Assembly: GCA_963702425.1 (NCBI GenBank)
Contig: CAVPCQ010000012.1
Span: 32,001 to 96,000 of the forward strand
Direction of reading: 5' to 3'
Length of the DNA stretch: 64,000 nt
Source: an uncultured Acidobacteriota bacterium
Lineage (GTDB): Bacteria > Acidobacteriota > Polarisedimenticolia > J045
In this document: piece after piece, positions 1-56,426 of the stretch
Numbering within the stretch: position 1 is the stretch's first letter
Layout: each line of letters starts with the position of its first letter
Notes under the pieces: model-generated
Told to the model about the DNA's origin: nothing
The model's database searches: none
Seen by the model: only the letters and a program-made list of their open reading frames with translations
Position numbers and translations under genes: made by a program

Positions 1-1415
1 TTCCACTCCGCCACCGGTGTCGACTTGAGGAACTCGACGACGTGCACCGACACGAGGCGCTCGAGCGATTCGAAACCGGGTAGCGACTGGAGCGATCCGT
101 GCCCGATCAGCAGGTACATCGTTACGGCGATGAAGACCAACGCGGCGACTCGTCGGTACTCAATGCGCTGTCGGAAGAACTTCTGCGAGCGATGGGTCCC
201 GAATACCAGCAGGAGCGCAGCCGAGATGCAGCCCGCCAGCGCCACGCCATCCATACCCCACATCCCGACGAACAGCAGGCTGAGCAGCGTCTTGCCACAT
301 GCGGAGAAGCCTCGTTGCAGTGCGAGAATCTTCGTCGCCTTGGCGTACATCAGCCCGAAGTTCATGTAGGAATAGCAAGCCCCCAGGATCACCGTGACGA
401 CCTGGATACGGGCGATACGCGCCGACCACCAGAATTCGCTCGGCGTGAACACTCGCAACACGGAATCTACACACACTGCGACCACCAAACCGGCGAAGAG
501 CAGGAAGAAGATGTAGGTTGTGAACATCCGACCGCTCTGGGCTTTCGCCCCATCCGGATCAGCCTCCGCCAGTTCGAACTGCTTGGTCACCCAGGAACGC
601 ATGAAGGGCTCAGCGACGAGAAGAGTGATCAAGGTCGGGAACTTCATTCCCATCTGCATCTTGCCGACCCCGCCCAGGCTGATCGAGAAGCGAACGATGA
701 GGCTCTCGATTTGCCCCGCCACCCACGCCACGACTGCCCCCGGAATCAGGGGCCACTGGTAGCGGAGGAGCTCGCGCGCAACGTCCCTCCGGAAGGCGAA
801 CCCGCACTCGCGAGCACAAAGCCAACCGAAAGTCAGAGCCGCACAGATCGCGACGACGAAGTTCGTGAGGAAGTACCCGAGCAGGCCGAGTTTCAAGACG
901 AGCAGCAGCCAGACGTTGAGCCCGATGCTGACCAGTAGCTGCATCAGACCGATCAGGGAATAGGCTACGGACCGGCGCTGGATGAGGAGAATGGATGCGG
1001 CCGTGTTCGCGGTGAGGTCAAACACGAAGGTGCCGAAGCCGAGGCAGATCAGAGGGTAAGACGCCGCGTCCCCGAGGAGGAGTTGGCTCATTGGCTTGCT
1101 GAAGATCATGGCCAGCGTGGCGATCGCCACCGCCGGCACGGCGACGAGGACGATTCCGGTAGGCACGACCGAATTCCGGCGGTCACCGGTCTCGGCATGG
1201 TAGTACCTCATCATCGCGCCACCCACCCCGTTCGCGAGCAGGCTCAGCACGAGTGACAGGCTGGTGTCCACCATCGCGATCTGACCGTAACCCGAATCGC
1301 GAAACAGATGGGCGTAGACTGGGAGCATCAGGAATCCGACGGCCTTGCTGGCGACAACGGCGGAGCCGTACACGCCGGCGTGCTTCAGCGTCGCCCGGGT
1401 GAGTCCGCTCGCCAT
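1..1415 (-). CDS. wzx: Wzx-like oligosaccharide/polysaccharide flippase (MOP superfamily), 3' end beyond left window edge
   Basis: Not in the ORF track (no stop inside the window). Manual translation from ATG at 1415: MASGLTRATLKHAGVYGSAVVASKAVGFLMLPVYAHLFRDSGYGQIAMVDTSLSLVLSLLANGVGGAMMRYY... then many hydrophobic segments and 'ARELLRYQWPLIP', typical of Wzx/RfbX proteins. Starts 2 nt after the PPTase stop. Confidence 0.85.
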   Translation of the reverse strand, partial: MASGLTRATLKHAGVYGSAVVASKAVGFLMLPVYAHLFRDSGYGQIAMVDTSLSLVLSLLANGVGGAMMRYYHAETGDRRNSVVPTGIVLVAVPAVAIATLAMIFSKPMSQLLLGDAASYPLICLGFGTFVFDLTANTAASILLIQRRSVAYSLIGLMQLLVSIGLNVWLLLVLKLGLLGYFLTNFVVAICAALTFGWLCARECGFAFRRDVARELLRYQWPLIPGAVVAWVAGQIESLIVRFSISLGGVGKMQMGMKFPTLITLLVAEPFMRSWVTKQFELAEADPDGAKAQSGRMFTTYIFFLLFAGLVVAVCVDSVLRVFTPSEFWWSARIARIQVVTVILGACYSYMNFGLMYAKATKILALQRGFSACGKTLLSLLFVGMWGMDGVALAGCISAALLLVFGTHRSQKFFRQRIEYRRVAALVFIAVTMYLLIGHGSLQSLPGFESLERLVSVHVVEFLKSTPVAEW

Positions 1416-1417
1416 GG

Positions 1418-2191
1418 TTACGGAATCGCCTGTTGCCCGTCGAAACGAGAGACTGTCGCGATGTTACCCTCGACGACTACGGCCCCGGCATACCCCGGCG
1501 CCGGGTTCAGGGCGAGCATGGACCAGCCGAGCGCTTCCGATGCGTCCCCGTCCACTCGCAGGATCCGCGCCGGCTCGTACGGCCCCACGCTGACCTCGAA
1601 CTGCTCGAGGGGGAAGGACAGACCTTCACCACGAGCCTTGATGAAAGCCTCCTTGCGCGCCCAGCACCGGAAGAAGGCCTCGATCCATTCGTGGCCGTCG
1701 AATCGGTCCAGCTCGGCAATCTCACCGCGGGCGAAGAACCGGCGGGCAACGCCGTCATCGGCCTGCTGGGCCTCGACGAGCTCGACATCGACTCCGACCT
1801 CGCGGTCCTGCGTGATGGCGATCAGGACCAGGCCCGCCGAGTGCGAGAGGTTGAACCTCAGATCGATCGGCAGCGGGCCGGCGAGTTCCGGCTTGCCGTA
1901 GGACGCCAGCCGATACTGGAGCGCCGCCGCCGGCAGGCCGAGATAGCGTGCCAGCACTTCCCGCAGCACACCCCGTCGCGAAATGAACCTCCGGCGGTCG
2001 GTCTCGAACCGGAAACGTCGCGCCCGCGCACGCTCGTTCTCTGCGAGAGTCCCTTCGAGACGACCCTGGTCGCTCCCGAACCGATCGACGTCGACCCGCC
2101 AGACGTGAAGTTCATCAGGCCGCAATGCGAGTGACGCCGGCGGACCGCACCAGGCATCGATGGTCGTCGGGAATCGAAGGGGCGCCGGCAT
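1418..2191 (-). CDS. Sfp-type 4'-phosphopantetheinyl transferase
   Basis: Motifs 'YGKPEL', 'LRFNLSHS', 'EVGVDVE', 'FFRCWARKEAFIKARGEGL'. Confidence 0.95.
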   Translation of the reverse strand: MPAPLRFPTTIDAWCGPPASLALRPDELHVWRVDVDRFGSDQGRLEGTLAENERARARRFRFETDRRRFISRRGVLREVLARYLGLPAAALQYRLASYGKPELAGPLPIDLRFNLSHSAGLVLIAITQDREVGVDVELVEAQQADDGVARRFFARGEIAELDRFDGHEWIEAFFRCWARKEAFIKARGEGLSFPLEQFEVSVGPYEPARILRVDGDASEALGWSMLALNPAPGYAGAVVVEGNIATVSRFDGQQAIP

Positions 2192-2195
2192 GGCG

Positions 2196-2957
2196 CTATG
2201 CCTGGCCGGCTAGGTGGCGCTGAAGATCGCGCGACAGCATCTGGAAGAACAACGCCCGGCAGGATTGGTGGTAGAAATGCCCACCCTGGAACATCCGAAC
2301 GACTACGTCCGCTCTGGTGTGTCGGGCCCACGCCTCCAGATCGGTGCGAGCGACATCCGGATCGCGAAGGCCGCCGTAGGCAGCGATCGGACAGTCGAGC
2401 GGATCGTCCTCGACATGCTCATACGTCTCGCACACCGAGAAATCGGCCCGCAAGGCGGGCAGCAGGAGCTCCATCAGCTCTGCCGACTCTAGGGCCTCCG
2501 GTGGCGTTCCGTCGTAGCGCCGCAGCTCCTCCACGAAGCGTTCGGGACCCAGGTCTCGGATCGGAGCCACTGGATAGGGCAGGTGTGGACCGCGGTGCCC
2601 GGAGACCACCAGCTGAACGGGCTGTGTGCCCGGGTCCCGTCGCAGCAGCCGAGCGAGCTCGAAGGCCAGGAGCGCGCCCATGCTGTGTCCGAACAGGGCA
2701 AAGGGCACGTCGAGGTAGTGGCGAAGGCCGTCCCGCATCGCCTCGGCCAGCCTTCGCGCGTCTCGAAGCGGCGGCTCCTCGATGCGCGCCTCACGGCCCG
2801 GCAGACACACCGCAAGGACCTCCACGCTCTTCGGAAGCTCGCGGCTCCAGTCGCGATACGCCACCGTGCCCCCGCCGGCGTACGGCAGGCAGAACAGCCT
2901 CAGACGAATCCCCGTGCCCGGCCGATGGCGCGCAATCCACGGGTTCTCAGGCTTCAT
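2196..2957 (-). CDS. Type II (editing) thioesterase, GrsT/RifR family
   Basis: 'RLFCLPYAGGG', 'FALFGHSMGALLAFELAR', 'GGHFY'. Start moved from the track's 3191 to ATG 2957 (MKPENPW), which has an AGGAG RBS upstream. Confidence 0.93.
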   Translation of the reverse strand: MKPENPWIARHRPGTGIRLRLFCLPYAGGGTVAYRDWSRELPKSVEVLAVCLPGREARIEEPPLRDARRLAEAMRDGLRHYLDVPFALFGHSMGALLAFELARLLRRDPGTQPVQLVVSGHRGPHLPYPVAPIRDLGPERFVEELRRYDGTPPEALESAELMELLLPALRADFSVCETYEHVEDDPLDCPIAAYGGLRDPDVARTDLEAWARHTRADVVVRMFQGGHFYHQSCRALFFQMLSRDLQRHLAGQA

Positions 2958-3876
2958 GGGGACTCCTGCTGGACAGCGCGGGATCGAGCTGTCCCGGAAG
3001 CGCGACGCTCTGCCGCCTCCACGTTCCGAACCAGTCCGCAATCGCGTCCAAAAGCTCCTTCTGGTTCCCGAGCAGTGTGAAGGTGTGGTCCGTACGGTGC
3101 ACGATCTCATTGCGGTAGCCCGGTGCCGAACGAAGACGCGCCATGCAACTTTCCGCGAACACGTCGAAATAGTCCAGGGAGTGGTCCCCATGCGAGTGCA
3201 CGAACAGGAAGCGGACCTGCCGGTCCAGGAGGGCGTGAAGTTCCCGCGACAACTGGTCCGATATCTTCATCACCTGCTGAGGAGGCGCAACACGGTCTTT
3301 GAACTGGTCAACGAGAACTTTGACCAGCCGTTTGTACTGAATATTCCCCTTCAGCGCTCGCATCCATGCGCCGCGGTCCAGCAGTGACTTCCTCCAGTAC
3401 TGCCTCGCCCAGCTTCGGTTCTTCACATAGCGGTTCCACTCGGAATTCCGGTCCAGCCCCTGGCTGTTCAGCATCACAATTCCGACAACCCGCTCGTCGG
3501 CACATGCCGTCTTGAACGATGTGACCGCGCCCGAACACAGCCCGACCAGGATGAAGCGCGTCATCCCGAAGCGTCTTTCGAGATCGTTCATGACTTCCCG
3601 TGCTTCCACAACGGTGCTCTCCGACCACGTCAGGCGGTCTCGACGTATGCCGCTGTCGCCGATTCCGCTATGATCGAACCTGGCCACCACGAACCCGCAT
3701 GAGGCCAGTCGTCGCGCGATCCTGACCGACATCCGACTCGGGCCGACACGGTGGACGACCCCTGCGTTGAACAGAATCACTGCTGGCAAAGCCTCCTCTT
3801 GGTCAGGGCCCGGCTGTTTCGCAATGATCCCAACCAGAGACGGGGCGGTGCCGAACGTCGTTGCGATCTCAAGCAC
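2947..3876 (-). CDS. Alpha/beta-hydrolase-fold protein with Cys nucleophile elbow (GLCSG); resembles exosortase-A-associated 'hydrolase 1' family
   Basis: 'AVILFNAGVVHRVGPSR', 'RFDHSGIGDS', 'LVGLCSGA', C-terminal 'TDHTF'. Probable GTG start at 3876 overlaps the upstream TGA. Confidence 0.8.
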   Translation of the reverse strand: MLEIATTFGTAPSLVGIIAKQPGPDQEEALPAVILFNAGVVHRVGPSRMSVRIARRLASCGFVVARFDHSGIGDSGIRRDRLTWSESTVVEAREVMNDLERRFGMTRFILVGLCSGAVTSFKTACADERVVGIVMLNSQGLDRNSEWNRYVKNRSWARQYWRKSLLDRGAWMRALKGNIQYKRLVKVLVDQFKDRVAPPQQVMKISDQLSRELHALLDRQVRFLFVHSHGDHSLDYFDVFAESCMARLRSAPGYRNEIVHRTDHTFTLLGNQKELLDAIADWFGTWRRQSVALPGQLDPALSSRSPHEA

Positions 3877-4720
3877 GATGCACCTCGGAAACCCACTGCG
3901 CGATCCGCTGAATGCTCTGAGTCGGTAGCACCATCTCGTACGGCTCGGCAAACCACATCATCGGTTCATGGATCGGTGCCTCGTCCACCTTGGCGCCGAG
4001 CTGGTCCAGGCGCAAGCGAAGATCTCGAAACTCGCCACTATCGCCGTTGTCCACGAGCAGGATGCTCCGTGCTGGCGATCGGCCGATCTGATCCAGGTCG
4101 AACTGCTCGAGCTGGCGCACGGCCTTGTCGGAGAACAGGAAGCCGAGCACCTCGAGCCCACTCTCACGCCCTGCCAGGCGACGGGACTCCTGCTCCCGCC
4201 ATCCGTGCTTGCGCTCGTGCGACGTCTGCTGGGCGCGGATCTCGTCCAAGTAGCGTCGTCCGTCGACCACGGGCTGCCAGAGAGCCAGGGAATCGAGCGA
4301 CCCCGTCCTTTCGCCGACCTTCACCGCCAGGCTCGCCCCCAGGCGCAGCCCGACGACGCCGACCCGGCGGCAGCGGTTTCCCATGTACTCGATGGCCGCG
4401 TTGAGGTCCTCGGTCCAGCGATCGAGATCACCTTCGTCCTCCTCCCCGAGAGAGTCACCGCTGCCGAAGAAGTCGAATCGGAGCACTGGAAAGCCGGCCA
4501 GGTTGAGCTGCCGGGCCAACTGCCGGCATCCTCTGTGACTTCGGCCGTATTCGTGCCCTGGCGGGTACGCGATGACGATACCGTCCTCGCGCGTGTTGCT
4601 GCCGAAGGGCGATTCATGCAGACCAAAAAGACGATCGTTCGGACCAAAGAAGAAGGGAGTCAGGGCCTCGCGCCTCGAGGCTCCGGCACTCTCGTTCCCT
4701 CCGGGCACCTGGGTTGTCAA
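3869..4720 (-). CDS. Alpha/beta-hydrolase-fold protein lacking a Ser nucleophile (GLRLG); resembles exosortase-A-associated 'hydrolase 2' family
   Basis: 'PFFFGPNDRLFGLH', 'PPGHEYGRSHR', 'GFPVLRFDFFGSGDS', 'VVGLRLGASLA', 'LWQPVVDGRRYL'. Probable TTG start at 4720 with AGGAGG RBS just after the NRPS-PKS stop. Confidence 0.8.
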   Translation of the reverse strand: MTTQVPGGNESAGASRREALTPFFFGPNDRLFGLHESPFGSNTREDGIVIAYPPGHEYGRSHRGCRQLARQLNLAGFPVLRFDFFGSGDSLGEEDEGDLDRWTEDLNAAIEYMGNRCRRVGVVGLRLGASLAVKVGERTGSLDSLALWQPVVDGRRYLDEIRAQQTSHERKHGWREQESRRLAGRESGLEVLGFLFSDKAVRQLEQFDLDQIGRSPARSILLVDNGDSGEFRDLRLRLDQLGAKVDEAPIHEPMMWFAEPYEMVLPTQSIQRIAQWVSEVHRA

Positions 4721-4733: not shown

Positions 4734-7700
4734 TCAATTCCGCGGGCGGCCACGGCGGTCGCGGGGCGCGACCAACCGCCCCAGCGCGGACAGCACGCTC
4801 CGCCCGGTCCGGCCTGCCGGCGCCGGTTCCACTTCCGCGACCTTCGCATCGCAGGTGGACGCGATCTGCCCAAGCGTCTGATGGAACAGCGCACGCAGAT
4901 TCACCTTCATTCCCGCCCTGGTCTCGAGGGCCTCCATCACTTTCACCATCACCAGTGAGTTTCCACCGAGTTCCAGGAAGCTGTCGTTGACGCCCACGCG
5001 GTCGATCCCGAGCACCTCGGACCAGATCTCCGCGAGGATAATCTCAGTCGGCGTCTCCGGTGGAACGTAGTCCGTCGGAAGATCGGGGCGCGGGTGACGG
5101 TGCCGCCCAGCCGGAGCCTCGACCATCTCGCTCTCTTCGAGGTCGGGCGACTCGACCGCCGTAGGGAGTCGGTACCGCTGCGGGCGAGCGGACTGAAGGA
5201 GGAGCGAGAGGTCCGTCTCGGAGACCAGGACATTCGGCTCTTCCGCCCCGGCGAGGATCCGACGGAACACTTCGCCACCCTCCCTGTTGGAAATGCCCTG
5301 CGCTTCCGGAAGGGGGACCCCTGCGGCCTCCACAGCCATGCCGACCTCGCGCCAGCGATTCCAGTTCACGGAAACGCAGAAGCGACCGGTGCTCGCCGCG
5401 TGGCTGCGTGCAAAAGCATCGAGGTAGGCGTTCGCCGCGGAGTAGTCCGCCACGCCGGGTACGCCCTTGACCGCGTTGAGGGACGAGCAGAGCACGAAGA
5501 AGTCCAGCTGTTCCTGGCTCAGCAGGCTTTCCAGCACGCGAGTTCCCAGCAGCTTCGGCCCGAAACTGAGCCACGGTCTGTCGGGCGACTGGATCGCCAG
5601 TAGGCCGCCGGCCGTGACACCCGCCGCATGGACCACCCCGTGAATGGAGCCGAAACGGGACCTTGCCTCCCGCAGCACGTTCCGCATTTGAACCGGATCG
5701 GAAACGTCGGCGGCTACCGCCATGACCTGCGCGCCGTTCGCCTCCAGGGTCTGCACGGTCCGAATCCGGCGGCTCACGGGATCCGTCTTGTCGCCGTTGA
5801 GGTGTTGCTCCCACTCCGACCTGTCCGGCAACGGTGTTCGGCCTACGAGGACGAGATTCGCGTGGCACCACTCGGCCAAGCAGTTCGCCAGGACGTACCC
5901 GACGCCGGTCAGACCACCGCTGATGAGATACGTCCCGCGCTCCCGCAGGCGGGGCGTCAAGTCGCCATCCGGTTTGCTCAGGTGTACCGGGGAGAAGGAC
6001 TCCAGCCAACGTCGTCCGCTGCGGTAGGCGACGACAGGGTCGGAGTCGGCGTCGGCCGCGGCGCCGTCGATCTCGCGAATCAGCGCGTCCACTGCCTCCG
6101 GTACCTGCAGCCGCAGGTCCTCTGCCGAGAAGTCAACGTTCCGGCAGGACACCTTGGCGAACTCGTGGCCGATCACTCGAACCGGGCCGAGGATCGTCGC
6201 CTTCTCGGCGCAGATGGACTCTGCGCCCGTCACGTCGTGCACGCCCTCCGTGACCGCGAAGATGCGCAGGCCGCTCGAGGCTTCCGCGTCCGCCAACGCC
6301 CGTACCAGGAAGAACAGGCTGAAGTAGCCAAGATACTGCAACTCCTCGGCGAGTGCGTCATCGTTGCGTATCGCGTCTGAAGCGGGCGTGGTGCCCCACA
6401 GATGAACGGCGAGTCCGGGGAAGCCACCGTCTCGTGCCAGGTCGCCGACGAGGCGATGGTAGTCGTCCTGCGACCGCGGATCGAGAGTGATCCTGTCGCC
6501 CGTTCGCTCGTATCGCGGGCCGGTCGTTACCTCGAACACCCGCCGGCCGTCGGCCTGGAGCCGCTCGAGGCACCGCCGAGCGAAGTCCGAGCCGTCGGCA
6601 AAGACCACGCAGCGGGTTTCGGCGGGACGATCCGACGCAGTCAGGGGCCGCTCTCCGGACAGGCTCGTCCGCCGCCAGGTCCTCGCGTAGTACCAATCGG
6701 CGATGTTCCTTCTCAGGCCCGGGGAACCCTCGCCACGTTCGACCGACTTGTCGAGCCGGTCGATCCAGAAGCGCTGCCGCTGGAACGGGTACGTGGGCAG
6801 GGTCACGCGGCGGCGAGACTCGGCCCGGTAGAAGCCGCACCAGTCAACGCTGACTCCCACCGTCCAGAGACGTGCCAGGGCGCCCATGAGCACCGCCGCA
6901 TCCGAGACCTCCGCCTTCGGATGACGCATCGACGAGATCAGGACCTTGTTCGGATCGCACGCGTCGTGCATGCGCGCTAGTGAGGTCATGATCTGGCCGG
7001 GGCCGACCTCGAGGAGGACCTGGTCCGGCATGCGCAGGATCCGTTCCATCCCCTCGGCGAATCGAACCGGTTCGCGAAGGTGGAGACCCCAGTACTCGGG
7101 GCTCCGGGCCTCCGACTCGGTGATCCAGTCGCCCGTCAGGTTGGACACGAACGGGATTCTCAACGAGCCGAGTTTAGCCTTCCCGACGGCCTCGACGAGC
7201 GGCCCTACGCCGCTCTCCATCAGCCCCGAGTGATACGCGTGGGTGGCGGCCACGCGGCTGCACTCCACACCGTCCCGCGTCAGCCGCTCCTCGAACGCCT
7301 CGATCCGCTTCGGGTCGCCGGAAACGAGGCACAGCGACGGGGCATTGACCGCGGACAGCCAGATCCCCTCCTCCCGTTGCAGCAGTGCGCGAACACGGTC
7401 TTCCGGCAAGGGGATCGATAGCATGGCGCCGTCGGGAGACTTCTCCATCAGACGACCGCGAAGCGCAACGACCCTCAGGGCGTCCTGGTAGCTCAGCACA
7501 CCGGAGACGCACGCGGCCACGTATTCCCCCAGGCTGTGGCCGATGCAGGCAGCGGGCTCGATGCCCCACGACTGCCAGAGTCTCGCCATCGCGTAGTCGA
7601 CGAGGAACACCGCCGGCTGGAAGATCGTGGGGCGGTCCAGCAGGACCGCCGCATCGGCGGGGTCGGCCTCCGCCGGATAGAGGCAACTCCGCAGGTCGAA

Positions 7701-10700
7701 GTCGATTTCGTCCCGAAGGTAATGGAGCCCCTCGTCGACCGTCTCGCGGAAGACCGTTTCGGTCTCGTACAACTCACGGCCCATGTCCATGTGCTGGTGG
7801 CCGTGGCCTGGGAACATGAACACGACGGACGGTGCACGCTCCGGTGCGTGCCTGGTCCAGACTCGATCCGCTGCACCGCCGCGCAGCGCCTGAACGGCAT
7901 CGGCGCCGTCCCGGCAGAGCACTGCCCGCCGGTGCCGGAACTCCCTGCGCCCGACTTGCAGTGTGTACGCCGCGTCGGCCAGGTTCACGTCGCTGTTCCG
8001 TTCGAGATGATCGGAAAGCCGCACTCCGGCCTCGTCGAGGGCCTCGCGACTCTTGGCCGACAGCATCAGCAGCTGGCACGGCCGGGACGGCCCCGATGCG
8101 TCCAACGCCGGCGCCTCTTCCAGGATCGCGTGGGCGTTGGTACCGCCCAGGCCGAAGGCACTGACGCCCGCCCGGCGTGGCACGCCGGCCGGCGTCGTCC
8201 AGTCCCGAAGTTCCGAAACCACATAAAACGGGCTGTCGTCGAAGTCGATGTTCGGATTCGGGCTTTCGAAGTGCAGGCTCGGCGGGAGCTGGCCGTGTTC
8301 CATCGCAAGGACCGTCTTGATCAGCCCGGCCACGCCGGCGGCCTCGTTGAGGTGCCCCATGTTGGACTTCAGCGAGCCCAGGCCGCAGAACGCACGCTTC
8401 GCGGTCCGCTCGCGGAAGACCTTCGTCAGTGCGGCAACCTCGATCGGATCGCCGAGCGCAGTCGCCGTCCCGTGCGCCTCGACATACGAGATGCTCTCCG
8501 GATCGACCCCGGCGGACGCCTGGGCCAACGCGATCGCCGCGGCCTGGCCTTCTACACTGGGGGCGGTGAAGCCGACCTTGCTCGAGCCGTCGTTGTTGAC
8601 GGCGGTCCCGCGAATGACGGCATGGACCTGGTCGCCGTCCGCCAGCGCGTCCTCCAGCCGTTTGAGCGCGATCACCGCAGAACCGCTGCCGCTCACGGTG
8701 CCGTCCGCGCGAGCGTCGAACGTCCGGTTGTGTCCGTCGGCGGCTCGAATCCCGCCGGACTCGTACATGTAACCGTTTACGACGGGTATCTGGATGCACA
8801 CGCCACCGGCCAGCGCGATATCGCACTGATGATCCAGCAGCGAGCGGCACGCTTCGTGAACTGCTACGAGGCCGGTGGAACACGCGGTCTGAACCGTCAT
8901 GCTCGGCCCGCGCAGGTTGAGATCGTACGACACGCGCGTCGCGATGAAGTCCTTGTCGACGGACAGCGTCCACTGCATGCCGCCGACCGACGACAGTAGA
9001 CCGGGCTGTGACTGCAGGTTCATTGCGTACGAGCTGGTAGTCATCCCGGCATAGACCGCAATCATGCCCGCGTACCGTTCCGGGTCATAGCCGGCCCGCT
9101 CGAGGACCTCCCACGCGCATTCCAGGAACACCCGTTGCTGGGGATCCAGCAGCTCGGCTTCGCGCGGAGAATAGCCGAAGAACCGGGCATCGAAAAACTC
9201 GACATCGTCCAGGATGGCTCGCGCCTTGACGAATTTCGGATGCGCCAGGAGATGCTCCGGTATTCCAGCCGTCCTCAACTCCTCGTCCGTGAAAAACCGA
9301 ACCGACTCCACTCCGTCCCTGAGGTTGTCCCAGAACGTCTCGACGTCCCGGGCGCCGGGGAATCGGCCTGCCATCGCGATGACCGCAATCGCGTTGCCAC
9401 GATCCGCTCCGCGGCGGGCGAGCCGGGTCTCGGCGCTCGCGTGGAGTCCGGGAACCGGGTCCTCGTCCCCGCTCAGGTGGCTGGCCAGCCCCTCCACCGT
9501 GGGGTACTGGAACAGATCGGTGACCGGAACGTCTCTCCCGAGCTCGTCGATCAGGCGCCGGTGGACCTGCAGCAGACGCAGCGAATGCCCCCCCAGGTCG
9601 AAGAAGTTGTCCCGGACCCCGACCGTCTCGACCCCGAGCACGCCGCGCCAGATCGCCGCAATCCTCTCCTCGATCTCGCTCCGCGGGGCGACATAGGCTT
9701 CCTCTGACACTCGGTCCGTCGCGGGTGCGGGAAGCGCGCGGCGGTCGACCTTCCCATTCGGCGTAAGCGGCAGCGCGTCGAGAAACACGAACACCGACGG
9801 AACCATGTACTCAGGCATGGTTTCGCACAGGGCGGCTCGCAGATCGGCCCGGGAAGGCTCCCGCCCGGTGCTGCTGACAACGTAGGCCGCCAGGTACTTG
9901 TCTCCCTGCCCATCGTCCAGGCACATCACCACCGCGTCGCGCACTTCGGGGCGCTGGACGAGTGCGGCTTCGACTTCTCCCAGCTCGATTCGGAACCCCC
10001 GCAGCTTGACCTGGTTGTCACTCCGACCAATGAACTCGATGTCGCCGCTCGCGAGCCGGCGGACGAGATCCCCGGTCCGGTAAAGGCGCACCGGTCGCGG
10101 GCCCCCGGTGTCCACATCCACGAACCGCTGTGCCGTGAGTTCGGGCCGGCTCAGGTACCCGCGTGCAAGCCCGTCGCCACCGACAAATAGCTCGCCAAGC
10201 ACTCCTGGCGGACACGGTTCGAACGCCTGGTCCAGAATGAAACAGGTCGAGTTCGCGATGGGGAGACCGATCGGTACCGTGACCGCGTCTTCTGGAACTT
10301 CGCGAACCGGATACCACGTCGAGAACGTCGTATTCTCGGTCGGCCCGTAGACGTGGAGCAGGTTCTCCGGAGGACCGTCTTCGAGCACCGCGCGCACGCG
10401 AGCGGGATCGACCGCCTCGCCACCGAAGAGCAGGTACCGCAACGCGCGGCAACTTCCCGGCGCCTCCACCGTCAGCTGGTTGAACAAGGCGGTCGTCAGG
10501 AACAGCACCGTGATACCCCGTTCCCGCAGCTCTGCGGAAAACCGGCGTGGCGATAGAACGATGTCCGGACCCAGCCCGATCAGCTGCGCCCCGTTCAGCA
10601 GCGCACCCCAGATCTCGAAGGTGGCCGCGTCGAATGACGCGTTGGATGCCTGCGCGATCCGGTCGGACGGTCCCAGCTGTATGTAGTCGGTGTTCCGGAC

Positions 10701-13700
10701 CAATCGGACGATGGAACGATGGCACACCGAGACACCCTTGGGCTTCCCGGTGGAACCGGACGTGTAGATGACGTAGGCCAGGCTGTCCGCGGTCGCAGCG
10801 GCTCGTGGGCGCGCGTCGCTCTCCGAGGCGATCCCCGGCCAGTCTGTGTCGAGGCAGATCATCACGCCGTGATAGGCAGGCAACTGCTCCGTCAGGTGCG
10901 ATTGGGTCAGCAGCACCGGAGCGGCCGTGTCCTCCAGCATGAACTCGAGACGCTGCTTCGGGTATCCCGTATCGAGCGGAACGTACGCTCCGCCCGCTTT
11001 CAGGACCGCCAGGATCGCGACGATCATGTCGACCCCGCGCTCCGCGAAAACGGCGACCATGATCTCGGGACCGACGCCGCGGCCGATCAGCCGGTTAGCC
11101 AGGCGATTCGACAGGCGATCCAGTTCGCCATAGGTCACGCTCCGCCCTTCGTAGAGGACCGCCACGGCATCTGGCGAATCTTCCGCGCAACGTTCGAACA
11201 ACGTGTGGACGCACACTCCCGAAGGGTACTCCCGGGTCGTATCGTTCCACTCGACGGCCCGTCGTTGCTTTTCGGCCGGCGCGATCATCGAGATCTGGTC
11301 GAGCCTCCGAATCGCGGGTTCCGCGATCTGCTCCAGCAACCGCCCGAAGTGCCTGAGCAACTGCTCGGGCGCATCCGCTGCGAAACGCCGCGCATCGTAT
11401 CGAAGCTCCGCCGACAACCGTCTCCCCGGGTGGACGACCAATGCCAACGGGTAGTTCGCGTACGATACGTCCCGCCCCTCCGTGATCCGCAGGCTGCTCG
11501 CGGCCAGTGAAGACTGAACGTCCATCGGGTAATTCTCGTAGACGAGAAGGCTGTCGAACAGCTGCGTCGCGCCCCGGACGTTGCTCCAGCTCCGAATCTC
11601 GTACAACGGAGTGTATTCGTGCTGCTGCATCTCGGTCTGTTGTGCCTGGATGCCCTCGAGCCACTCCAGGATCGGCTGATCGTTCGTTTGCACCCGCATG
11701 GGCAGGGTGTTGATGAACAAGCCCATGATCCGTTCGACGCCGGGCAGCTCGGAAGCCCGGCCGGAAACCGTCACTCCGAAGAGGACATCATCCGTGCCGC
11801 TGTACCGAGACAACAGGAGCGACCAAGCGCCCTGGACCAGCGTGTTCACTGTCAGGCGGTGTCGTCGCGCGAACTCGGCGACTTTCGCGCTCGCCTCCTC
11901 TGACAGCAGAGTGGAAGCGCGCGCGGGGCGCACCGACACATCCGGGGGAAGCCCTTGGCAAACCGTCGGCAGGGGCGTCGGCTCATACCAGCCCGCCAGG
12001 CGATCGCGCCAGTACGCCTCGGCAGTGGAGCGATCCTGACGCTGCAGCCATCGGACGTAATCGGAGAACGGCCGTCCGGGATCCAGGTCCGTCGAGCGGC
12101 CGGCACGCCGGCTCGAGTACGCTCCCAGGACGCCGTTCAACAGAAGCGGCAGCGACCAGCCATCCAGGATGACATGGTGGTGGGTCCAGATCAGCCGGAA
12201 GGTGTCCACTCCGATCCGGATCAGGCGCACGCGCATCAGGGGGGGGGTTCCGAGGTCGAAGCCACGCCTCCGATCCAGGTCCGCCACGCTGTCGAGACGT
12301 TCCTCGAGTGTGTCTGGCTCGAGTGCGCTCCAGTCGTCCTCGGACCATTCCAGCTCGACATCGCGACACACCACCTGGTGGAACGTCTCCACGTTTTCGA
12401 CGACGAAGGCCGTACGGAGCACCGGTTGCCACCGGAGCACGTCCTGCCAGGCCGCTCTCATGTGATCCGGAACGAGATCGCCGACCAGCGTCAACGCCAG
12501 TTGGCTCGTATAGGTCGCGGAGTCCGGCTCCACGAGCGTGTGATACAGCATGCCCTCCTGGAGGGGCGACAGTACGTAGATGTCCTCGATGCCCAGGGGC
12601 CGGTACCGAGCCTGGATCCGGTCGAGTTCCGTTTGACTGAGCCGGGCGAGAGGAAAATCCGAAGGGGTGTAAGTGGTGAACTCGCGTGTCGCACAGTGCT
12701 CGATGATCTCCTGCAGCACGGAGTTGAAACGATCCGCGAGTGCCTGTACGGTGGCGCGGTCGTGGATGCGCTCGTCGAATATCCAGTTCACCTGCAACCG
12801 TCCGTCTTCCACTACCGCCGTGACATCCAACAGGTGGTGGCGACGGTTCCGGGGACTGACCTGGCTGCCCGCCGGCTCGCTGGCCCTCGCGAAGAGGGAG
12901 TCGTTCGCGAACGTCCGGTCGTCTTGTCCCAGGTAGTTGAAGCCGATCTGTCCGACCGGAAGCGATCGCAGCGTTCCCTTGATCCGCTCGTCCCCGGACA
13001 GGTACCGCAGAATGCCCCAGCCGACACCGTTCGACGGGAGGCTGCGAAGCTGTTCCTTGACAGCCGTCAGGACGGCGGCGATTCCCCGGGCGCCACCGAG
13101 ATCGATGAGCACCGGATAGACCGACGTGAACCAACCGACCGTGCGTGAGGTGTCAACGTCCTCGAACAGATCCTCCCGGCCGTGGCCCTCCAGGTTCACG
13201 AGGACCTTCTGCGAGCCCGCCCACTCGGAGAGCGATTGCGCCAGGGCAGCCATCAAGACGTCGTTGATCCGAGTCCGGTACGCGGCGGGGACGGCTTGGA
13301 GCAGGGCTGTGGTCTGGTGCCGCTCCAACTGGGCGCGAACGACGCCGCCGTCGGCCAACCGTCCGGCGGTCTCGTCCGGCGCACGATCCACGGGCAGGGG
13401 CGCTGGAGCGGCGTCGGCGAGCCGCAGCCAATACTCGCGCTGCGCGAGCGCGGCGTCGGAGTCCGCGTACGACGCGAGGCGGTGGGACCAGTCCCTGAGC
13501 GACGTGGTCTTCTGCGGCAGGCGAATCTCCTCCCCCGCCCGCAATTGCCTGCAGGCAGTCTGGAGGTCCTCGATCAAGATCATCAAGGAGACGGTGTCCA
13601 CGGCGACATGATGGATGGCGATCAGCAGATGGTCCGGACGCCCCCGTCCCAGGCGGAACTGGCCGACGTTGATCACGGGACCGCGCTCGAGGCTCAGACC

Positions 13701-16700
13701 GGTTTGCAGACGATCCGCGTGGGCCCGGAGAGTCGCCCGCAGTTCGGAATCCGGGACCCCGGACAGATCCACGTACGAGAACGGCGTCGGCCCGGCGTCC
13801 GCCACGATCTCCTGGGCCCACGCGTCTCCAGCGCGACGGAAGCGGAGCCGGAGCACATCGTGGTGCTCGATCAGAGCCTCGCACGCCCTGCGCAGGATCT
13901 CCGGGGCAACCTGCTCCCGGATTTCGAGCATGCGTCCGTAGTTGTAATGGTCCGGCTCATCCGGTCTCGATTCGAACCAGCGGTGCTGGATCGGCGTCAG
14001 CGGGAGCTCCCCGGTCACCGTGCCCTGTTCAGCGAGCACTGTCGGCACCGAACCGGCCACCGCCGCGAGAGCGGCAATGGTCGGGTTCTCGAAGAGGTCC
14101 CGCGGCTTCAGGCGCAAGCCCGCCTGGTTTGCGCGAGAGACGATCTGGATGCTGAGAATGGACTCGCCGCCGAGCTCGAAAAAATCGTCGTGCACTCCGA
14201 TCTTGTCGACCCGCAGGACCTCCGACCAGATCCGCGCGAGTGTCTGTTCTGCCGCGTTTCGGGGCGCAGCGTAGCCCTTGTCGGCATCATCGCGACCAAA
14301 CTCCGGACCGGGCAACGCAGCCCGGTCGAGCTTGCCGTTGGGCGTGAGCGGCAGGCGCTCGAGCACGAGGAAGGCGGCCGGGACCATGTAGTCCGGCAGA
14401 CGCTTCCGCAGGTACTCCCGCAGGTCCGACGGTGTCGGTGGCGGCGAAGCGGAACAGGCGACGTACGCGACGAGTCGCTTGGGACCGTCGCCGTCCCGGT
14501 GCACCACGACGGCACTCGCATCGACCTCGGCATGAAGATCGAGATGGGACTCGATCTCGCCCAGTTCGATCCGGAAGCCCCTCACCTTGACCTGGTCGTC
14601 TTTCCGCCCGAGGAAGTGCAGCACACCGTCGGCGCTGTACCGCGCCAGGTCGCCGGTCTTGTAGAGGCGACCATCCGCAACCGGATGGCGGACGAACTTC
14701 TCCTCGGTCTCCTCCGGGCGGTTGAGGTACCCGCGCGCGACGCTCGCACCGCCGACGTGAAGTTCGCCGGCCACGCCGACAGCGACCGGTTCTCCGTCCG
14801 AGCCGAGGAGATACACCTTGGTGTTGGCGATCGGCCTGCCGACGGGGGGCCCCCAGGGATAGCGCTCGCGGTCGCCGGGACTCACTCGATGGGTCAGGAC
14901 CCCGACGGTGGTCTCAGTTGGCCCATAGTGATTGAGGATCGCGCACCATGGAGCGAGGGATTGCACCCGCTCCACCAATCCCCACGAACAGACCTCCCCA
15001 CCGACCACGAGCAGTCGCCGGGGCAGAACATGCGCGGGGCTGGCCGCCGCCGTAAGCAGGGCTTCCAGGTGCGACGGCACGATCTTCACGCAGTCGACCG
15101 CGTTCGCCCTCATGTAGTCGGCGAACGCGTCTCCGTTTCCGATCCGTTCCTCGGACATCACGTGGAGACAGCCGCCGCTGCACAGGGCGCCGAAGATCGA
15201 CGTGTTCCCGAGATCTGCGGCCAGGGTGGAGACCGTCGCGAAGTGCGAGCCCGGAGGAACGTCCAACCGCTCGAGGACGGCCTCGGCGTAATTCAGCAAC
15301 TGCCGGTGCTCGATCTGCACGCCCTTGGGACGACCCGTAGTCCCGGAGGTGTACATGACGTACGCCAGGTTCTCGGGCTCGGCGTCTGGGAGCGATTGTC
15401 GGCCGTGCCCTGCAGCTTCTGGTTCCGGGTCCCCGTCGAGGCAGATCACGTGCGGGATTCCCGCGGGGAGATCGCTGGCCCTGGACGAATGGGTCAGCAC
15501 GACCTTGGCGCCGGAGTCCTCGAGCATGAACCGGATGCGCTCGCCCGGATAGACCGGGTCCAGCGGTACATACGCTGCCCCGGATGCCAGAACGCCCATC
15601 AGGCCTTCGATCATCTCCAGGGATCGATCGAAATACAGCGCGACGCGATCGTTGGAACCGACCCCGAGTGCGCGCAGCCGGCAAGCCAGCGTCCTCGCTC
15701 TGGTATCGAGTTCGGCGTAGCTCAGCGCGCATCCCTCGAACACGACAGCCGGCGCGTCGGGACGCGTCCGGGCCCAGTCCTGAAACAGTTGCGGTACGCA
15801 GCGATCAGAAGGCAGGTCGCGTTCCGTGCGATTCCAATCCACGAGAAGCTGTTGGCGCTCGCTCTCGTCCATCAGCTGGAGTTGAGAGATCGGCCGATCC
15901 TCATTCTGTCCGATCTGCAGCAGCAGGTACCTGTAGTGCTTCAGCAGCCGCTGAACGGTCTCTGCATCGAACAGATCGCGCGCATACTCGATCCGAATCA
16001 CGACGCGCTCGCGGGACTCGATGCAGTGGATCGAAAGGTCGAATCGTGCGAAATCGAGATCGGACCCGAGCATCTGCACCTGCACGGGGCCGAGGCGGCC
16101 CTCACTCCCCTTCTGGTCCAGTTCGAGGTGGTTGAACAGGATCTGGAACAGTGGATTGCGGCCGAGGTCCCGCTCGGGCCGCAGCTCCTCGACCAGCTTC
16201 TCGAAGGGCACGTCCGGCCGCGCAAACGCGCCGAGTACGACCTGCCGGACACGCCCCAGCAGCTCCGGGAAGGTCGGATCGCCGGCGAGGTTCGTCCGCA
16301 GGACGAGGTTGTTTACGAAGAAGCCGATCAGTCCCTCGACTTTCCGATGACTCCTTCCGGAGATCGGTGTGCCGATTACCAGATCGGTCTGTCCACTGGA
16401 CCGCCACAGCAGAACCTTGAACGCAGCCAGCAGCATCATGAACGAAGTGACGCCCCGACGCTGGCAGAGCTCCCTGAGTGAGGCGGTTTCGTCGACGGAC
16501 AGCGTCACCATTTCGGTGCCGCCTCGATGGCTCTGGCTCGTCGGCCTGGGCCGGTCCATCGGCAAGTCGACGGACGGCAAGTCTACGCCGAGAAGCGTTC
16601 GCCAGTACTTCAGATCCCGCTCGAGATACGGCCCTTGCAGCATCTCCCGCTGCCACTGGGCGTAGTCCGCGTACTGAAGCTCGAGCTCCGGCAACGGCGA

Positions 16701-17399: not shown

Positions 17400-20300
17400 A
17401 GGGTTCCCTCTTCACGACTTTCGCTCTCACCGACCGTGGCGCAGGACTGCCCTTCCTTCGCCCACATGAGACCATCGATGTGTTTGGCAAGCTCCCCGAT
17501 AGTGAGCATGAGGAACAACTTGTGGAGCTGGAGCTCGACCTTGAGGGTCTCGCGAACCCGCGACAGGACCTTGATCGCCACCAGTGAGCTGCCGCCGAGT
17601 TCGAGGAAGTTGTCGTTGACTCCGATGCCGTCGATCCCGAGAACCGCGGACCAGATCTCCGCGAGCGCCAGCTCGGTCTGTGTCTCCGGTGGAACGAAGT
17701 CCGTCGGAAGCTCGGGGCGCGGGTAGAGATGGCGCCCGCTCGGTGCCTCGGCCGTCTCGCGCTCCTGCTTGTCGGTGGACTCAGACCCGGCGGGGAGTTG
17801 GTAGCGCTGGGACCGAGCGGACCGAAGCAGGAGCGGAAGGTCGGTCTCGGACACCAGGACGTTCGGCTCTTCCGCGCCGCGCAGGATCCGGCGGAACACC
17901 TCTCCACCTTCCTGGTTGGAGATGCCCTGACCCTCCGGAAGCGGTGCTCCTGCGGCCTCCACCGCCATACCGACTTCACGCCAGCGACTCCAGTTCACGG
18001 AGACGCAGAAGCGACCGGTACTCGCCGCGTGGCACCGGGCGAATGCATCGAGGTAGGCGTTCGCCGCCGAGTAGTCCGCCACGCCGGGTACGCCGATGAC
18101 GGTATTGAGGGACGAGCAGACTACGAAGAAGTCCAGGCGTTCCTGGCTCAGCGAGCGTTCCAGGACGCGAGCTCCCATCAGCTTCGGCCCGAAACTGAAC
18201 CACGGTCTGTCCGGAGACTGGATTGCCATGAGGCCGCCCGCCGTAACGCCGGCCGCATGGACCACCCCGTGAATCGGACCGAAATGGGTCCTTGCGTCCT
18301 TCAGCACCTTCTGCATCTCAACCGGATCGGACACGTCCGCAGCGCATGCCATGACCTGCGCACCGCTCGCCTCCAGAGACTGCACCGCGCGTATCCGGCG
18401 GCTCACGGACTCGTCGTTTCCGTCTCCACGGAGGTATTCCGCCCACTCCGATCTGTCCGGCAACGGAGTTCGGCCCACGAGCACGAGGTTCGCGTGGCAC
18501 CATTCGGCCAGGCAGTTCGCCAGAACGAGTCCGACGCCGGTCAAGCCACCGGTGACGAGATATGTTCCACGCTCCCGCAGGCGGGCCGTCGAGTCGCCTT
18601 TTGGCTCGACCAGGCGCACGGGCGAAAACGACTCGACCCAACGGCGTCCGTTGCGATAGGCGACCACGGCGTCGGAGTCGGTGTCGGCCGCGGCGCCGTC
18701 GATCTCGCGAATCAGCGCGTCCACCGCATCCGGCGCGCGCCGTTGCAGGTCGTCTGCCGAGAAGTCGACGTTCCGGCAGGACACCTTCGTGAACTCGTGG
18801 TCGATCACTCGAACCGCGCCGAGGACCGTCGCCTTTTCGGCGCAGATGGACTCGGCGCCCGTCACGTCGTGCACGCCCTCCGTGACGGCGAAGATGCGCA
18901 GTCCGTTCGAGGCTTCCGCGTCCGCCAACGCCCGCACCAGGAAGAACAGGCTGAAGTAGCCGCGGTACTGCACCTCGTCAACCAGCGCATCCTCCTGGCG
19001 CAGGGAGGCCGGAGCGGGCGTGGTGCCCCAGAGGTGAACGGCGAGTCCGGGGCAACCGTCGTCCCGCGCCAGGTCGCCGACGAGCCGCTGATAGTCGGCC
19101 TGCGACCTCGGATCGAGGGTGATCCTGTCGCCCGTCCGCTCGTAGCGCGCGCCGGTCGTCACCTCGAACACCTGTCGGCCGTCGGCCTTGAGTCTCTCCA
19201 CGCACCGCCGCGCGAAGTCCGAGCCGTCTCCAAAGACCACGCAGCGGGCCTCAGCGCCTCGGTCCGAGGCCGTCGAGGGACCGCCTTCGGAGAGACTCGT
19301 CCGCCGCCAGAACCTCGTGTAGTACCAATCGGCGATGTTCCTTCTCGGACCCAGGGAACCCGCGACTCGTTCGACCGGCTTCCTGACCCGGTCGATCCAG
19401 AAGCGCTGCCGCTGGAACGGGTACGTGGGCAGCGTCACGCGGCGGCGAGACTCATCCCGGTAGAAGCCCGGCCAGGACAACCGGCCTCCCGCCGTCCAGA
19501 GGCGAGCGACGGCACCCATGACCACCGCCGCATCCGAGACCTCCGCCTTCGGATGACGCATCGACGAGATCAGAACCCTGCCGGGATCGCACGCGTCATG
19601 CATGCGCGCCAGTGAGGTCATGATCTGGCCGGGACCGATCTCGAGGAGGATCTGATCTGGCATCTTCAGGATCCGCTCCATCCCCTCGGCGAAGCGAACC
19701 GGCTCCCGGAGGTGGAGTCCCCAGTATTCGGGACTCCGGGCCTCCGACTCCGTGATCCAGTCGCCCGTCAGGTTGGACATGAACGGAATGCCCAACGAGC
19801 CGAGTGCCGCCTTCCCGACGGCGTCTACGAGCGGTCGCACACCCCCCTCCATCAGCCCGGAGTGGTACGCGTGCGTGGCGGCCACGCGGCTGCACTCCAC
19901 ACCGTCCCGCGTCAGACGCTCCTCGAACACTGCGATCCGCGTCGGGTCGCCGGAAACGAGACACAGCGACGGAGCATTGACCGCGGACAGCCAGATCCCC
20001 TCCTCGTTCTCCAGCAAGGCACGGACATGGTCTTCGTCGAACGGGATCGACAGCATCGCGCCGTCGGGAGACTTCTCCATCAGGCGGCCACGAAGCGACA
20101 CGATCCGCAGCGCATCCCGGTAACTCAGCACACCGGACACGCACGCGGCCACGTACTCCCCCAGGCTGTGGCCGATGCAGGCGACCGGCTCGACACCCCA
20201 CGACTGCCAGAGTTTCGCCATCGCGTAGTCGACGAGAAACAGCGCGGGCTGGAAGATCGTCGGACGGTCCAGCACGGCCGCCGGATCGGCGCTGTCGGCC

Positions 20301-28459: not shown

Positions 28460-28460
28460 G

Positions 28461-45100: not shown

Positions 45101-45418
45101 TGCCAGATCGACTCCGGACAGGTCGTGAACGGCGATGCGCAGCTCGAAAGCTGGGTTGACGATTTGTCGAACTTGGCAATTGACGACATCGAAAGTCGTA
45201 CGCAGCACCTCGTGACGCTCGACGATCGTCTGCAAGGCGCGAGCGAGCGAGTCAATATCCAGTGGGCCCCGAAGCCGCAGCGTCGCACCGATCCTGATCC
45301 CGCCATGATCCGGATCCAACTGATCGAGCAGCCAGAACCGCTCCTGGGTCGGCGACAGCGGGTGGGTGCGATCGTCAGCGTCAGACTGACGATGCCCCGA
45401 CTTGGTCGTTTCACTCAT
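42143..45418 (-). CDS. NRPS initiation subunit: C(atypical)-A(Thr)-PCP
   Basis: C motif HHIVFEG; A code DFWNVGMVHK (Thr) with 'YGITETTVHVT'; PCP GGHSL; C-terminal 'RVEGEI' docking peptide. Confidence 0.93.
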   Translation of the reverse strand: MSETTKSGHRQSDADDRTHPLSPTQERFWLLDQLDPDHGGIRIGATLRLRGPLDIDSLARALQTIVERHEVLRTTFDVVNCQVRQIVNPAFELRIAVHDLSGVDLAERESELFQRIRASRRVSFDLRRGPLLTAQLFRLGEEHHVLLLVLHHIVFEGGSSVDKLYRELFALYEAYHEGRDNPLPPLEVQYGQYARWSHERAHGTELEGELAYWLDRFRDGPARLELRTDRPRVQDARRRGGLVEATVEGPLLEALHRLRSAERVSVLDVLLAALTLTLHRYTGNTDIGIGMVTGGRTPPEFQSLLGVFINAVVLRTDLAGNPTVRELLARVRGVARDAYSHSEIPFETVIERMDPARRPSPGTFPQVLCTVIDVSRIDSGLPYLKAERVASSPLDPHYDLIFNVYKNATSLALIFVYDAGLFDASTMERLKRHYLRALAEVVKDPDARLSDIVLIDDEERETLLERWNDVSVSYPVEGCLHELFERQVARTPDAVALTFDDRSLTYRELDVRANRLAHALRDRGVGPDVLVGLCVERSIETVVGILGILKAGGAYVPLDLANPADRIAFILEDTAVGVLVTQSGQLEKLPKHAAEVICLDRDSDAIDRESDERPASGVGKENLAYVIYTSGSTGKPKGVLIEHASVVRLFSATEEWFHFDSTDVWTLFHSCAFDFSVWEIWGALLYGGRLVVVPYWISRSPEEFYRLLARERITVLNQTPSAFRQLMVADEALHANHDLALRFVVFGGEALELHSLGPWFDRHGDTKPRLVNMYGITETTVHVTYRPLTAADARNATGSLIGVPIPDLQVYLLDAQMRPVPIGVPGEMYVGGAGVARGYLDRPELTAERFVRNPFRNEPDARLYRTGDVARYRPDRDLEYQGRNDEQVKIRGFRIELGEIEAALLQRPEVRDAVVTCVEDGKGDKYLVAYVVGSGAQALSPADLRSALSGSMPDYMVPATFVSLDSLPLTANGKVDRRALPSPAADRTSEEAYVGPRNETEERITAIWRVVLGVETIGVHDDFFHLGGHSLVATQVLIRITQEFGVRMPLSRFFRMPTVARIAEWVNQSSGTCGSAPAVTTDGGARVEGEI

Positions 45419-47188: not shown

Positions 47189-47189
47189 A

Positions 47190-51560: not shown

Positions 51561-51564
51561 CGCT

Positions 51565-53159: not shown

Positions 53160-53161
53160 TC

Positions 53162-56237: not shown

Positions 56238-56253
56238 CTCAAGTGGCGCAAAT

Positions 56254-56415: not shown

Positions 56416-56426
56416 CAGGGTCCTCG

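Follow-up and report, generated by a model that had tools for sequence, protein, structure and literature searches.

A candidate two-part, Cys-dependent release unit of the alpha/beta-hydrolase fold at the end of an NRPS-PKS assembly line in an uncultured Acidobacteriota bacterium

The hydA and hydB genes at the end of the assembly line

The window analysed in this work is the whole 64,000-nt stretch at positions 32,001 to 96,000 of the forward strand of contig CAVPCQ010000012.1 (GenBank assembly GCA_963702425.1), which comes from an uncultured Acidobacteriota bacterium (GTDB lineage Bacteria; Acidobacteriota; Polarisedimenticolia; J045). It carries an assembly line of nonribosomal peptide synthetase (NRPS) and polyketide synthase (PKS) megasynthases, and the last megasynthase gene is followed by two overlapping genes, hereafter hydA and hydB, coding for a pair of proteins with the alpha/beta-hydrolase fold, which are the subject of this work. 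All the genes of interest, namely hydA, hydB, the megasynthases and a type II thioesterase, are coded on the minus strand (Table 1).

No thioesterase, reductase or terminal condensation domain was detected by Pfam in the 4221-aa megasynthase, and in related loci the pair is likewise preceded by a carrier domain, so hydA and hydB sit where a release domain would be expected, as had been proposed in an earlier note on this DNA. The TGA stop of the megasynthase is found at 4736-4734, and hydA starts 13 nt past it with a TTG codon at 4720, preceded by AGGAGG and a 5-nt spacer. As read from the DNA, hydB has a GAGG ahead of its GTG start codon at 3876 and shares its first 8 nt with the end of hydA. 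The gene overlap and the terminal carrier directly before the pair are confirmed, and the positions given in the earlier note for the GLRLG, GLCSG and C-terminal DH motifs were also found to be correct. hydA and hydB are translationally coupled.

The hydB protein gives 35.4 bits on PF00561 and 32.6 bits on PF12146, while hydA is a borderline match to PF12146 with 27.3 bits vs the cut-off of 27. The former was modelled with a predicted local distance difference test (pLDDT) value of 85.0 and a predicted template modelling (pTM) score of 0.84, residues 145-218 forming a helical cap and residues 41-46 a conserved loop of low confidence, and the latter was likewise modelled with confidence as an alpha/beta hydrolase (pLDDT 87.9, pTM 0.87). 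In the predicted core of strands and helices, the nucleophile elbow comes after strand 5. Foldseek related both models to esterases at a probability of 1.00 with template modelling (TM) scores of about 0.55-0.68, and profile matches to solved esterases and lipases were obtained with E-values of 4e-24 and 7e-29. By sequence, hydA is assigned as a paralog of hydB.

By profile and fold, the closest solved relatives are found in the Hydrolase_4 group which includes feruloyl esterases, PET46 and the TTL lipase (8b4u, 9pjb, 7q4j), with TM scores of 0.60-0.68, and they have the RFD..G.GDS.G motif in common with the pair. These relatives are single serine hydrolases, whereas hydB has a Cys and hydA an Arg in place of the Ser; hydB also differs in its cap, with the root-mean-square deviation over the whole chain being around 10 Å. 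In the profile alignments with solved serine esterases such as 9pjb and 8b4u, both Cys114 of hydB and Arg126 of hydA are aligned on the Ser of GLSMG.

The Cys is present in all of the 120 best-listed hydB relatives, out of 601 with E up to 0.001, and in 147 of the 150 best representatives that are mutually at most 50% identical, among which His264 is found in 144, and Arg66 and Asp68 in all 150. In a library clustered at 50% identity, the hydB profile retrieves 3492 representatives with E of 1e-30 or better and 7411 with E of 1e-10 or better. The presence of Arg at the nucleophile position of the GLRLG protein, suggested earlier, is borne out by the esterase alignments and by 88 of the 95 hydA relatives, with the seven exceptions being the weakest matches (E 4e-10 or worse). 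As both elbows are retained across relatives and diverse representatives, they are features of the families and not a matter of chance.

In an alignment of 36 hydA relatives, the C-terminal half contains no His that is invariant or nearly so, and the combination of a Ser, Cys or Asp nucleophile with a His, which would make hydA a catalytically competent hydrolase, was not found. Lacking two members of the triad, with Arg in place of the nucleophile and no catalytic His, hydA should be inactive as a hydrolase. The only plausible catalytic centre of the two proteins is formed by Cys114 with His264, probably together with Asp231.

Neither hydA nor hydB matches PF00975 at E up to 0.01, so an identity as PF00975-type thioesterases was rejected; a PhaC-like identity was rejected as well, since no PhaC family in Pfam or NCBIfam matches at the same threshold. 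A separate observation concerns residues 37-48 of hydB (about 3733-3768), where the stretch N-x-G-x-x-H-R-x-G-P-x-R following strand 3 is nearly invariant in the subfamily linked to assembly lines. Its pLDDT is nevertheless below 50 in the model, and this stretch may form a mobile loop by the oxyanion hole.

Table 1 Features of the window; coordinates are positions within the 64,000-nt stretch.
Feature	Position	Strand	Remarks
hydA	3869..4720	-	alpha/beta-hydrolase-fold pseudoenzyme, 283 aa; Arg126 at the nucleophile position, no conserved His
GLRLG elbow of hydA	4337-4351	-	residues 124-128
hydB	2947..3876	-	alpha/beta hydrolase with helical cap, 309 aa; Cys114, probable acid Asp231, His264
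GLCSG elbow of hydB	3529-3543	-	residues 112-116; Cys114 codon 3535-3537
Asp231 of hydB	3184-3186	-	probable acid of the triad
DH motif of hydB	3085-3090	-	D263-H264; His264 codon 3085-3087
Terminal carrier domain	4830..5054	-	phosphopantetheine Ser is residue 4148 (codon 4956-4958), motif LGGNSL
Tail behind the carrier	4737-4829	-	31 aa
Basic amphipathic stretch of the tail	4770..4802	-	RSVLSALGRLV
Last NRPS-PKS megasynthase	4734..17399	-	4221 aa; TubC_N dock, C-A-T, C-A-T, KS-AT-KR-carrier (Pfam)
Type II thioesterase	2196..2956	-	PF00975, 4e-48, GHSMG; ATG start at 2956, hydB stop overlapped by 10 nt
Sfp/HetI-type phosphopantetheinyl transferase	1418..2191	-	NCBIfam and Pfam
Wzx-type (Polysacc_synt) flippase	3..1415	-	Pfam; continues past the window end
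Three upstream megasynthase genes	17396..45418	-	first of the line opens with a condensation domain
NRPS-PKS	17396-28459	-	Pfam
NRPS with two methyltransferase domains	28461 to about 42140	-	Pfam
C-A-T megasynthase	42143-45418	-	Pfam
Glycan block	46037..61405	both	includes the features below
GT4 glycosyltransferases (four)	46037-47257, 47190-48545, 51831-53159, 60011-61405		Pfam
NTP_transferase+Bac_transf priming enzyme	49050-50891	-	Pfam
Wzy-like	53120-54643		Pfam
Wzz-like	54775-55998		Pfam
Polysaccharide deacetylase	56427-57533		Pfam
GHL15	58060-60033		Pfam

Conservation of the pair and its relatives

A species-level scan with one genome per species gave at least 579 hydB relatives, and 80 loci were retained, belonging to Planctomycetota, Acidobacteriota, Chloroflexota, Gemmatimonadota, Pseudomonadota, KSB1, Zixibacteria and others. 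Of the 77 loci with room for it, 71 have a hydA-like gene immediately before hydB, and in 53 of 65 loci the end of a carrier domain is found no more than 450 nt upstream of hydA, with the last module before the pair being either C-A-T or KS-AT-KR-T.

In one Acidobacteriota locus (L007, 10007-13623) the hydA-like gene stands downstream of hydB, behind an ABC-2 transporter pair. In a Gemmatimonas locus (L064, 14073-17499) the first pair is followed, at a distance of about 4 kb, by a second stand-alone A-T protein with two more alpha/beta hydrolases behind it, which may represent a second copy of the device.

A search for longer proteins yielded 86 relatives at E up to 1e-10, of which 82 are fusions of hydA and hydB in gene order, most of them retaining both the Arg and the Cys elbow. 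Among the proteins with the B part only, hydB ends TubC_N-C-A(-T) NRPS modules in P0218 and P0234, and in P0221 (837 aa, from one metagenomic contig) it is fused to a Polysacc_synt (Wzx-type) flippase, so that the Cys enzyme would be tethered to a glycan exporter if this fusion is real. Since the fusions keep the gene order and the separate genes overlap, there is good indirect evidence for hydA and hydB acting as one physical unit at the ends of assembly lines.

Five of the hydA-hydB fusions (P0263, P0264, P0255, P0296 and P0292) have an additional C-terminal part of about 400 residues; P0263 and P0264 bear the JGI name of an ATP-grasp ligase, P0292 has a methyltransferase domain, and hydB of P0277 carries an unknown extension. 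When 11 Acidobacteriota loci were scanned for motifs of fused forms, nothing clear emerged, and long open frames seen in the Acidobacteriota sample were rejected as fusions, being stop-to-stop frames.

The terminal carrier of the window belongs to the subtype found before hydA at other loci. In the tree of carrier domains, 45 of the 47 terminal carriers fall inside one 62-row subtree, with a Shimodaira-Hasegawa-like approximate likelihood ratio test (SH-aLRT) value of 87, which is not strong, and the terminal-carrier label requires 15 changes on this tree vs a shuffled mean of 38.6, none of the 500 shuffles being as low. Some of the 17 rows of the subtree labelled as internal are probably terminal carriers mislabelled by the labelling rule. 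A tail of at least 15 residues past the domain was found in 28 of 48 terminal carriers, and 19 of these 28 long tails contain a basic amphipathic 11-mer, as does the window (shuffled mean 6.25; 0/500 shuffles reach 19). This stretch may be a docking or membrane-binding helix.

The best NCBIfam matches are TIGR03100 for hydB and TIGR03101 for hydA, named hydrolase 1 and hydrolase 2, exosortase A system-associated, which are hypothetical equivalogs with no assigned function. The earlier note had named these families as the relatives of the pair, and rightly so, as their true members likewise carry the Cys and the Arg; the profile search recommended there nevertheless leaves hydA and hydB outside both families, with 96.9 bits vs the curated cut-off of 168.45 for hydB on TIGR03100 (hydr1_PEP) and 89.4 bits vs 202.75 for hydA on TIGR03101 (hydr2_PEP). 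None of the 30 sampled relatives reaches these cut-offs either.

The true hydr1 signature consists of a GLCDA elbow, SGxD and ADHTF, and the true hydr2, coded by the gene just upstream of hydr1, has a G[LVI]R[AF]G elbow (GLRAG, GVRFG, GIRFG). The residue signature of TIGR03100 is found in hydB, with the elbow Cys, the SGxD acid motif and the DHTF His motif, and the features of TIGR03101 in hydA, which has the Arg in place of the nucleophile and is coded immediately before a hydr1-like gene. Residues C114, S228, D231, D263 and H264 are invariant in all eight aligned sequences, three of which are true TIGR03100 members. As the true members share the same signature, the Cys/Arg pair is regarded as ancestral to a superfamily.

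One Accumulibacter and two Aliiglaciecola genomes (G401-G403) possess two copies each at separate loci: the true TIGR03100 copies score 384, 320 and 322 bits and the copies linked to assembly lines 105, 97 and 86 bits, and a true TIGR03101 member at locus L105 reaches 302.9 bits. Because these three genomes hold a true pair and an assembly-line-linked pair at different loci, hydA and hydB of the window are assigned to a sister subfamily pair, paralogous to the TIGR equivalogs. The two kinds of pairs have in common the gene order (hydr2-like, then hydr1-like), the Cys/Arg elbows and the glycan surroundings; unlike the TIGR families, the pair of the window scores under the cut-offs, follows an NRPS-PKS and comes from a genome in which no exosortase (PF09721) was matched in the 91% complete assembly.

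The three true TIGR loci contain genes for an XrtA/PEP-CTERM-like amidotransferase, DegT-like and GNAT proteins, GT2 and GT4 glycosyltransferases, a deacetylase and a glucose/sorbosone dehydrogenase (GSDH), and no carrier protein, ligase or assembly line was seen within about 8 kb of them. Of the setting given for such pairs in the earlier note, exopolysaccharide loci beside acyl carrier proteins, the glycan genes are thus present, and no carrier protein was seen within this distance. The arrangement with GSDH directly after the pair (L070, 8153-9487; L075, 10845-12182; L106, 8872-11037) is common to assembly-line-linked loci and one true TIGR03100/TIGR03101 locus.

As for the genome of the window itself (G000), no further copy of hydA or hydB was found in it, and a third, weak TIGR03100/03101-like stretch (36-41 bits) is located on contig C37 at about 213298-213540 inside a 738-aa open frame. 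The search of this genome for the PEP-CTERM motif was uninformative, its control being silent throughout. In the Acidobacteriota sample of 401 genomes including this one, ten have a TIGR03100 match at E up to 1e-15, none of them above the cut-off, and a genome of the same genus has no such match. Full-text literature searches revealed no functional study of the Cys/Arg pair, and TIGR03100 was met in a single paper (PMC3584217), as a table entry for Bcam1334 in the Bep polysaccharide cluster of Burkholderia, with the authors guessing at a polysaccharide-processing role.

These data bear on the type II thioesterase next to hydB, which is probably an editing enzyme and which also shows a weak match to the Pks13 model of NCBIfam. 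Were this enzyme to release the chain, the pair would act elsewhere, for instance as a polysaccharide esterase or deacylase or as a proof-reading enzyme. The translational coupling of the PF00975 thioesterase to hydB fits such a division of roles, and so does the Bep cluster with its TIGR03100-like gene, the passage on which lists no assembly line. We regard it as very improbable, however, because only 6 of the 65 loci scanned (L006, L008, L010, L034, L067, L078) showed a PF00975 gene in the 6 kb downstream of hydB, whereas the pair follows a carrier in most loci, hydB is found fused to the ends of NRPS modules, and the terminal carriers form a dedicated subtype.

Glycan genes around the pair

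The assembly line of the window is embedded in a Wzx/Wzy-type polysaccharide locus, given that glycan genes stand beyond the upstream megasynthases on both strands (Table 1). In the priming enzyme, NTP_transferase and Bac_transf are fused together with a left-handed beta-helix part. Within the assembly line, the open reading frame (ORF) 28461-43145 of the minus strand shares about 1 kb, in another frame, with the C-A-T gene before it; as the TubC_N docking domain begins at residue 342, translation probably starts close to 42140.

For 65 loci, the surroundings of the pair were assessed by a Pfam scan of those ORFs whose start lies no further than 6 kb downstream of hydB, with crude ORF calls (longest frames, chosen greedily); 28 downstream ORFs of ten further loci (L046-L055) were left out of the scan. 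A strict list of glycan genes was used, which includes glycosyltransferases, Wzx/MurJ flippases, Bac_transf, Poly_export, CE4 or PIG-L deacetylases, polysaccharide lyases, pyruvyl transferase, DegT, UDP-GlcNAc 2-epimerase, Acyl_transf_3 and glycoside hydrolases, and loci with only sulfotransferase, carbamoyltransferase or ABC-2 genes (L078, L029, L007, L020) were left uncounted. At least one glycan gene was found in 32 of the 65 loci (16/31 and 16/34), compared with 2 of 28 random non-overlapping windows of the own genome (L109, L130) processed with the same pipeline, for which 32 windows had been drawn and 4 dropped for overlap. The Fisher test gives p = 6e-5, and the enrichment is suggestive only, since the control windows come from one genome rather than from ordinary NRPS clusters.

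In six loci (L015, L021, L030, L060, L072, L077) the pair is immediately followed by a Wzx-type flippase. A fusion of NTP_transferase and Bac_transf of the type found in the window is located after the pair in L008 (14437-16533), with L010 (12047-13966) having the LbH/Bac_transf form, and deacetylases occur near the pair in L018, L022, L024, L025 and L069, those of L006 and L010 being of the PIG-L type.

The chain could also be transferred to an acceptor other than a glycan, for example to a protein, to a lipid of the membrane or to a small amine or alcohol. The basic amphipathic helix predicted in most of the long carrier tails is compatible with work at the membrane, some of the fusions carry the ATP-grasp (by its JGI name) or methyltransferase parts mentioned above, and PEP-CTERM/exosortase systems are described as genetically linked to acyl-ACP-dependent N-acyl amino acid synthases (PMC4897644, citing Craig et al. 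2011). Such an acceptor nevertheless seems improbable to us: BLAST clustering of the neighbouring ORFs revealed no conserved gene for making it, with only the phosphopantetheinyl transferase and the type II thioesterase recurring besides the pair itself and pieces of NRPS, and the own genome, in its 91% complete assembly, gave no exosortase.

Chain release and its likely acceptor

The proposed release unit is best viewed next to the enzymes of this fold known to act on carrier-bound or thioester substrates. PhaC has a Cys-His-Asp triad with a GxCxG elbow, works as a dimer and is a transferase with a thioester intermediate. It resembles hydB in the alpha/beta-hydrolase fold and in the Cys on the elbow and differs in using a coenzyme A thioester as substrate, in polymerising it and, as stated above, in sequence family. 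The thioesterase domain of Pks13 in mycobacteria transfers mycolate to trehalose and is a functional precedent, as a release domain of the alpha/beta-hydrolase fold which hands the carrier-bound chain over to the hydroxyl of a sugar instead of water. Unlike the pair, it is a cis domain with a Ser nucleophile and no dead partner, and its sole sequence link to the locus is the weak match of the type II thioesterase.

A Cys-dependent NRPS thioesterase domain is also present in ObiF of obafluorin. As with hydB, ObiF and two further domains of this kind, SulM and MacB-TE, have the alpha/beta-hydrolase fold placed after the last carrier and an acyl-accepting Cys instead of Ser; they are, in contrast, single cis domains of the PF00975 type, whereas hydA and hydB are separate proteins making up an active/dead pair. 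SulM (PMC11298585) and MacB-TE (PMC13288461) are reported to cyclise their chains.

Considering the synteny, the fusions and the residue conservation, it is likely that the hydA-hydB pair is an off-loading unit. The fuller reading, in which it is a two-part Cys-dependent release unit for an assembly line without one of its own, with the chain passing onto Cys114 and a glycan being the likeliest acceptor by context, is regarded as fairly probable as a whole. The glycan taken by itself as the acceptor is proposed only tentatively, being plausible in view of the neighbouring glycan genes and the one hydB-flippase fusion. Thus, of the heterodimeric trans-acting transferase from carrier to glycan suggested in the earlier note, the two-part trans-acting release unit is well supported by the comparative data, and the glycan is a plausible candidate for the acceptor.

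In this favoured scheme, the dedicated carrier would present the finished peptide-polyketide chain to the hydA-hydB unit, and the chain would move from the carrier thiol to Cys114 with the formation of a thioester. As a non-catalytic partner or adaptor, hydA might dock the carrier, or its Arg126 might bind the phosphate of phosphopantetheine or a carboxylate of the substrate. The acyl-enzyme would be resolved by an incoming nucleophile activated by His264, probably together with Asp231. Judging by the surroundings, the likeliest nucleophile would be a hydroxyl or a de-N-acetylated amino group of a lipid-linked glycan, prior to its flipping, built by the products of the flanking glycosyltransferase, Bac_transf, deacetylase, Wzx and Wzy genes; alternatively, it could be water, or an internal nucleophile yielding a cyclic product. 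By analogy with PhaC, a thioester intermediate suits transfer chemistry, although Cys thioesterases that cyclise also exist.

A number of observations weigh against the favoured reading. In 12 of 65 loci hydA is not directly preceded by the end of a carrier, and in three Accumulibacter loci the NRPS-PKS is located downstream of the pair. The acid of hydB is uncertain, with Asp231 present in only 108 of the 150 representatives, and the chain might be released by the neighbouring type II thioesterase rather than by the pair. The flippase fusion, known from one metagenomic protein on a single contig, might be an artefact of gene calling. With respect to the acceptor, no glycan gene was seen in the 6 kb scanned in 33 of the 65 loci, the neighbouring genes were called in a crude manner, and the control windows of one genome do not stand for ordinary NRPS clusters, which often carry glycosyltransferases. 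Furthermore, all the close structural neighbours, namely the feruloyl esterases, PET46 and the TTL lipase, are hydrolases.

The structural neighbours, the loci with no glycan gene seen within 6 kb and the cyclising SulM and MacB-TE domains would all agree with the pair being a trans-acting thioesterase which simply hydrolyses or cyclises the chain, the glycan genes having a separate task, for instance the glycosylation of the free lipopeptide, or being mere neighbours. We consider plain release of this kind rather unlikely: it leaves aside the enrichment of glycan genes beside the pair and the fusion of hydB with a flippase, and the paralogous true TIGR pairs are found in glycan loci where no assembly line was seen within about 8 kb.

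A broader version of the favoured reading would make the Cys/Arg pair a general transacylase from carrier proteins to glycans, acting on a lipid-linked or nascent polysaccharide at the inner membrane face before Wzx-type export; at present it seems doubtful. Whole peptide-polyketide chains would then be grafted here, and simple acyl or aminoacyl groups in loci of the exosortase A and Burkholderia types; the attacking nucleophile could be a free amine produced by the recurrent CE4 or PIG-L deacetylases.

Chain release decides the final product of an assembly line, and few release domains are known. The family described here is large, phylogenetically broad and uncharacterised, and replaces the release domain by a Cys enzyme instead of a Ser one and a dead paralog with an invariant Arg. 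If the transfer to a glycan is true, genome-mining tools mis-predict the products of such clusters, a new kind of hybrid polymer is made, and two orphan NCBIfam families of exosortase polysaccharide loci gain a testable function. The cultured strains Aliiglaciecola litoralis JCM 15896 and A. lipolytica E3 hold both types of the pair and make the reading directly testable. Should the pair be a general transacylase, exopolysaccharides decorated with peptides or polyketides would constitute a widespread and unrecognised class of bacterial surface polymer.

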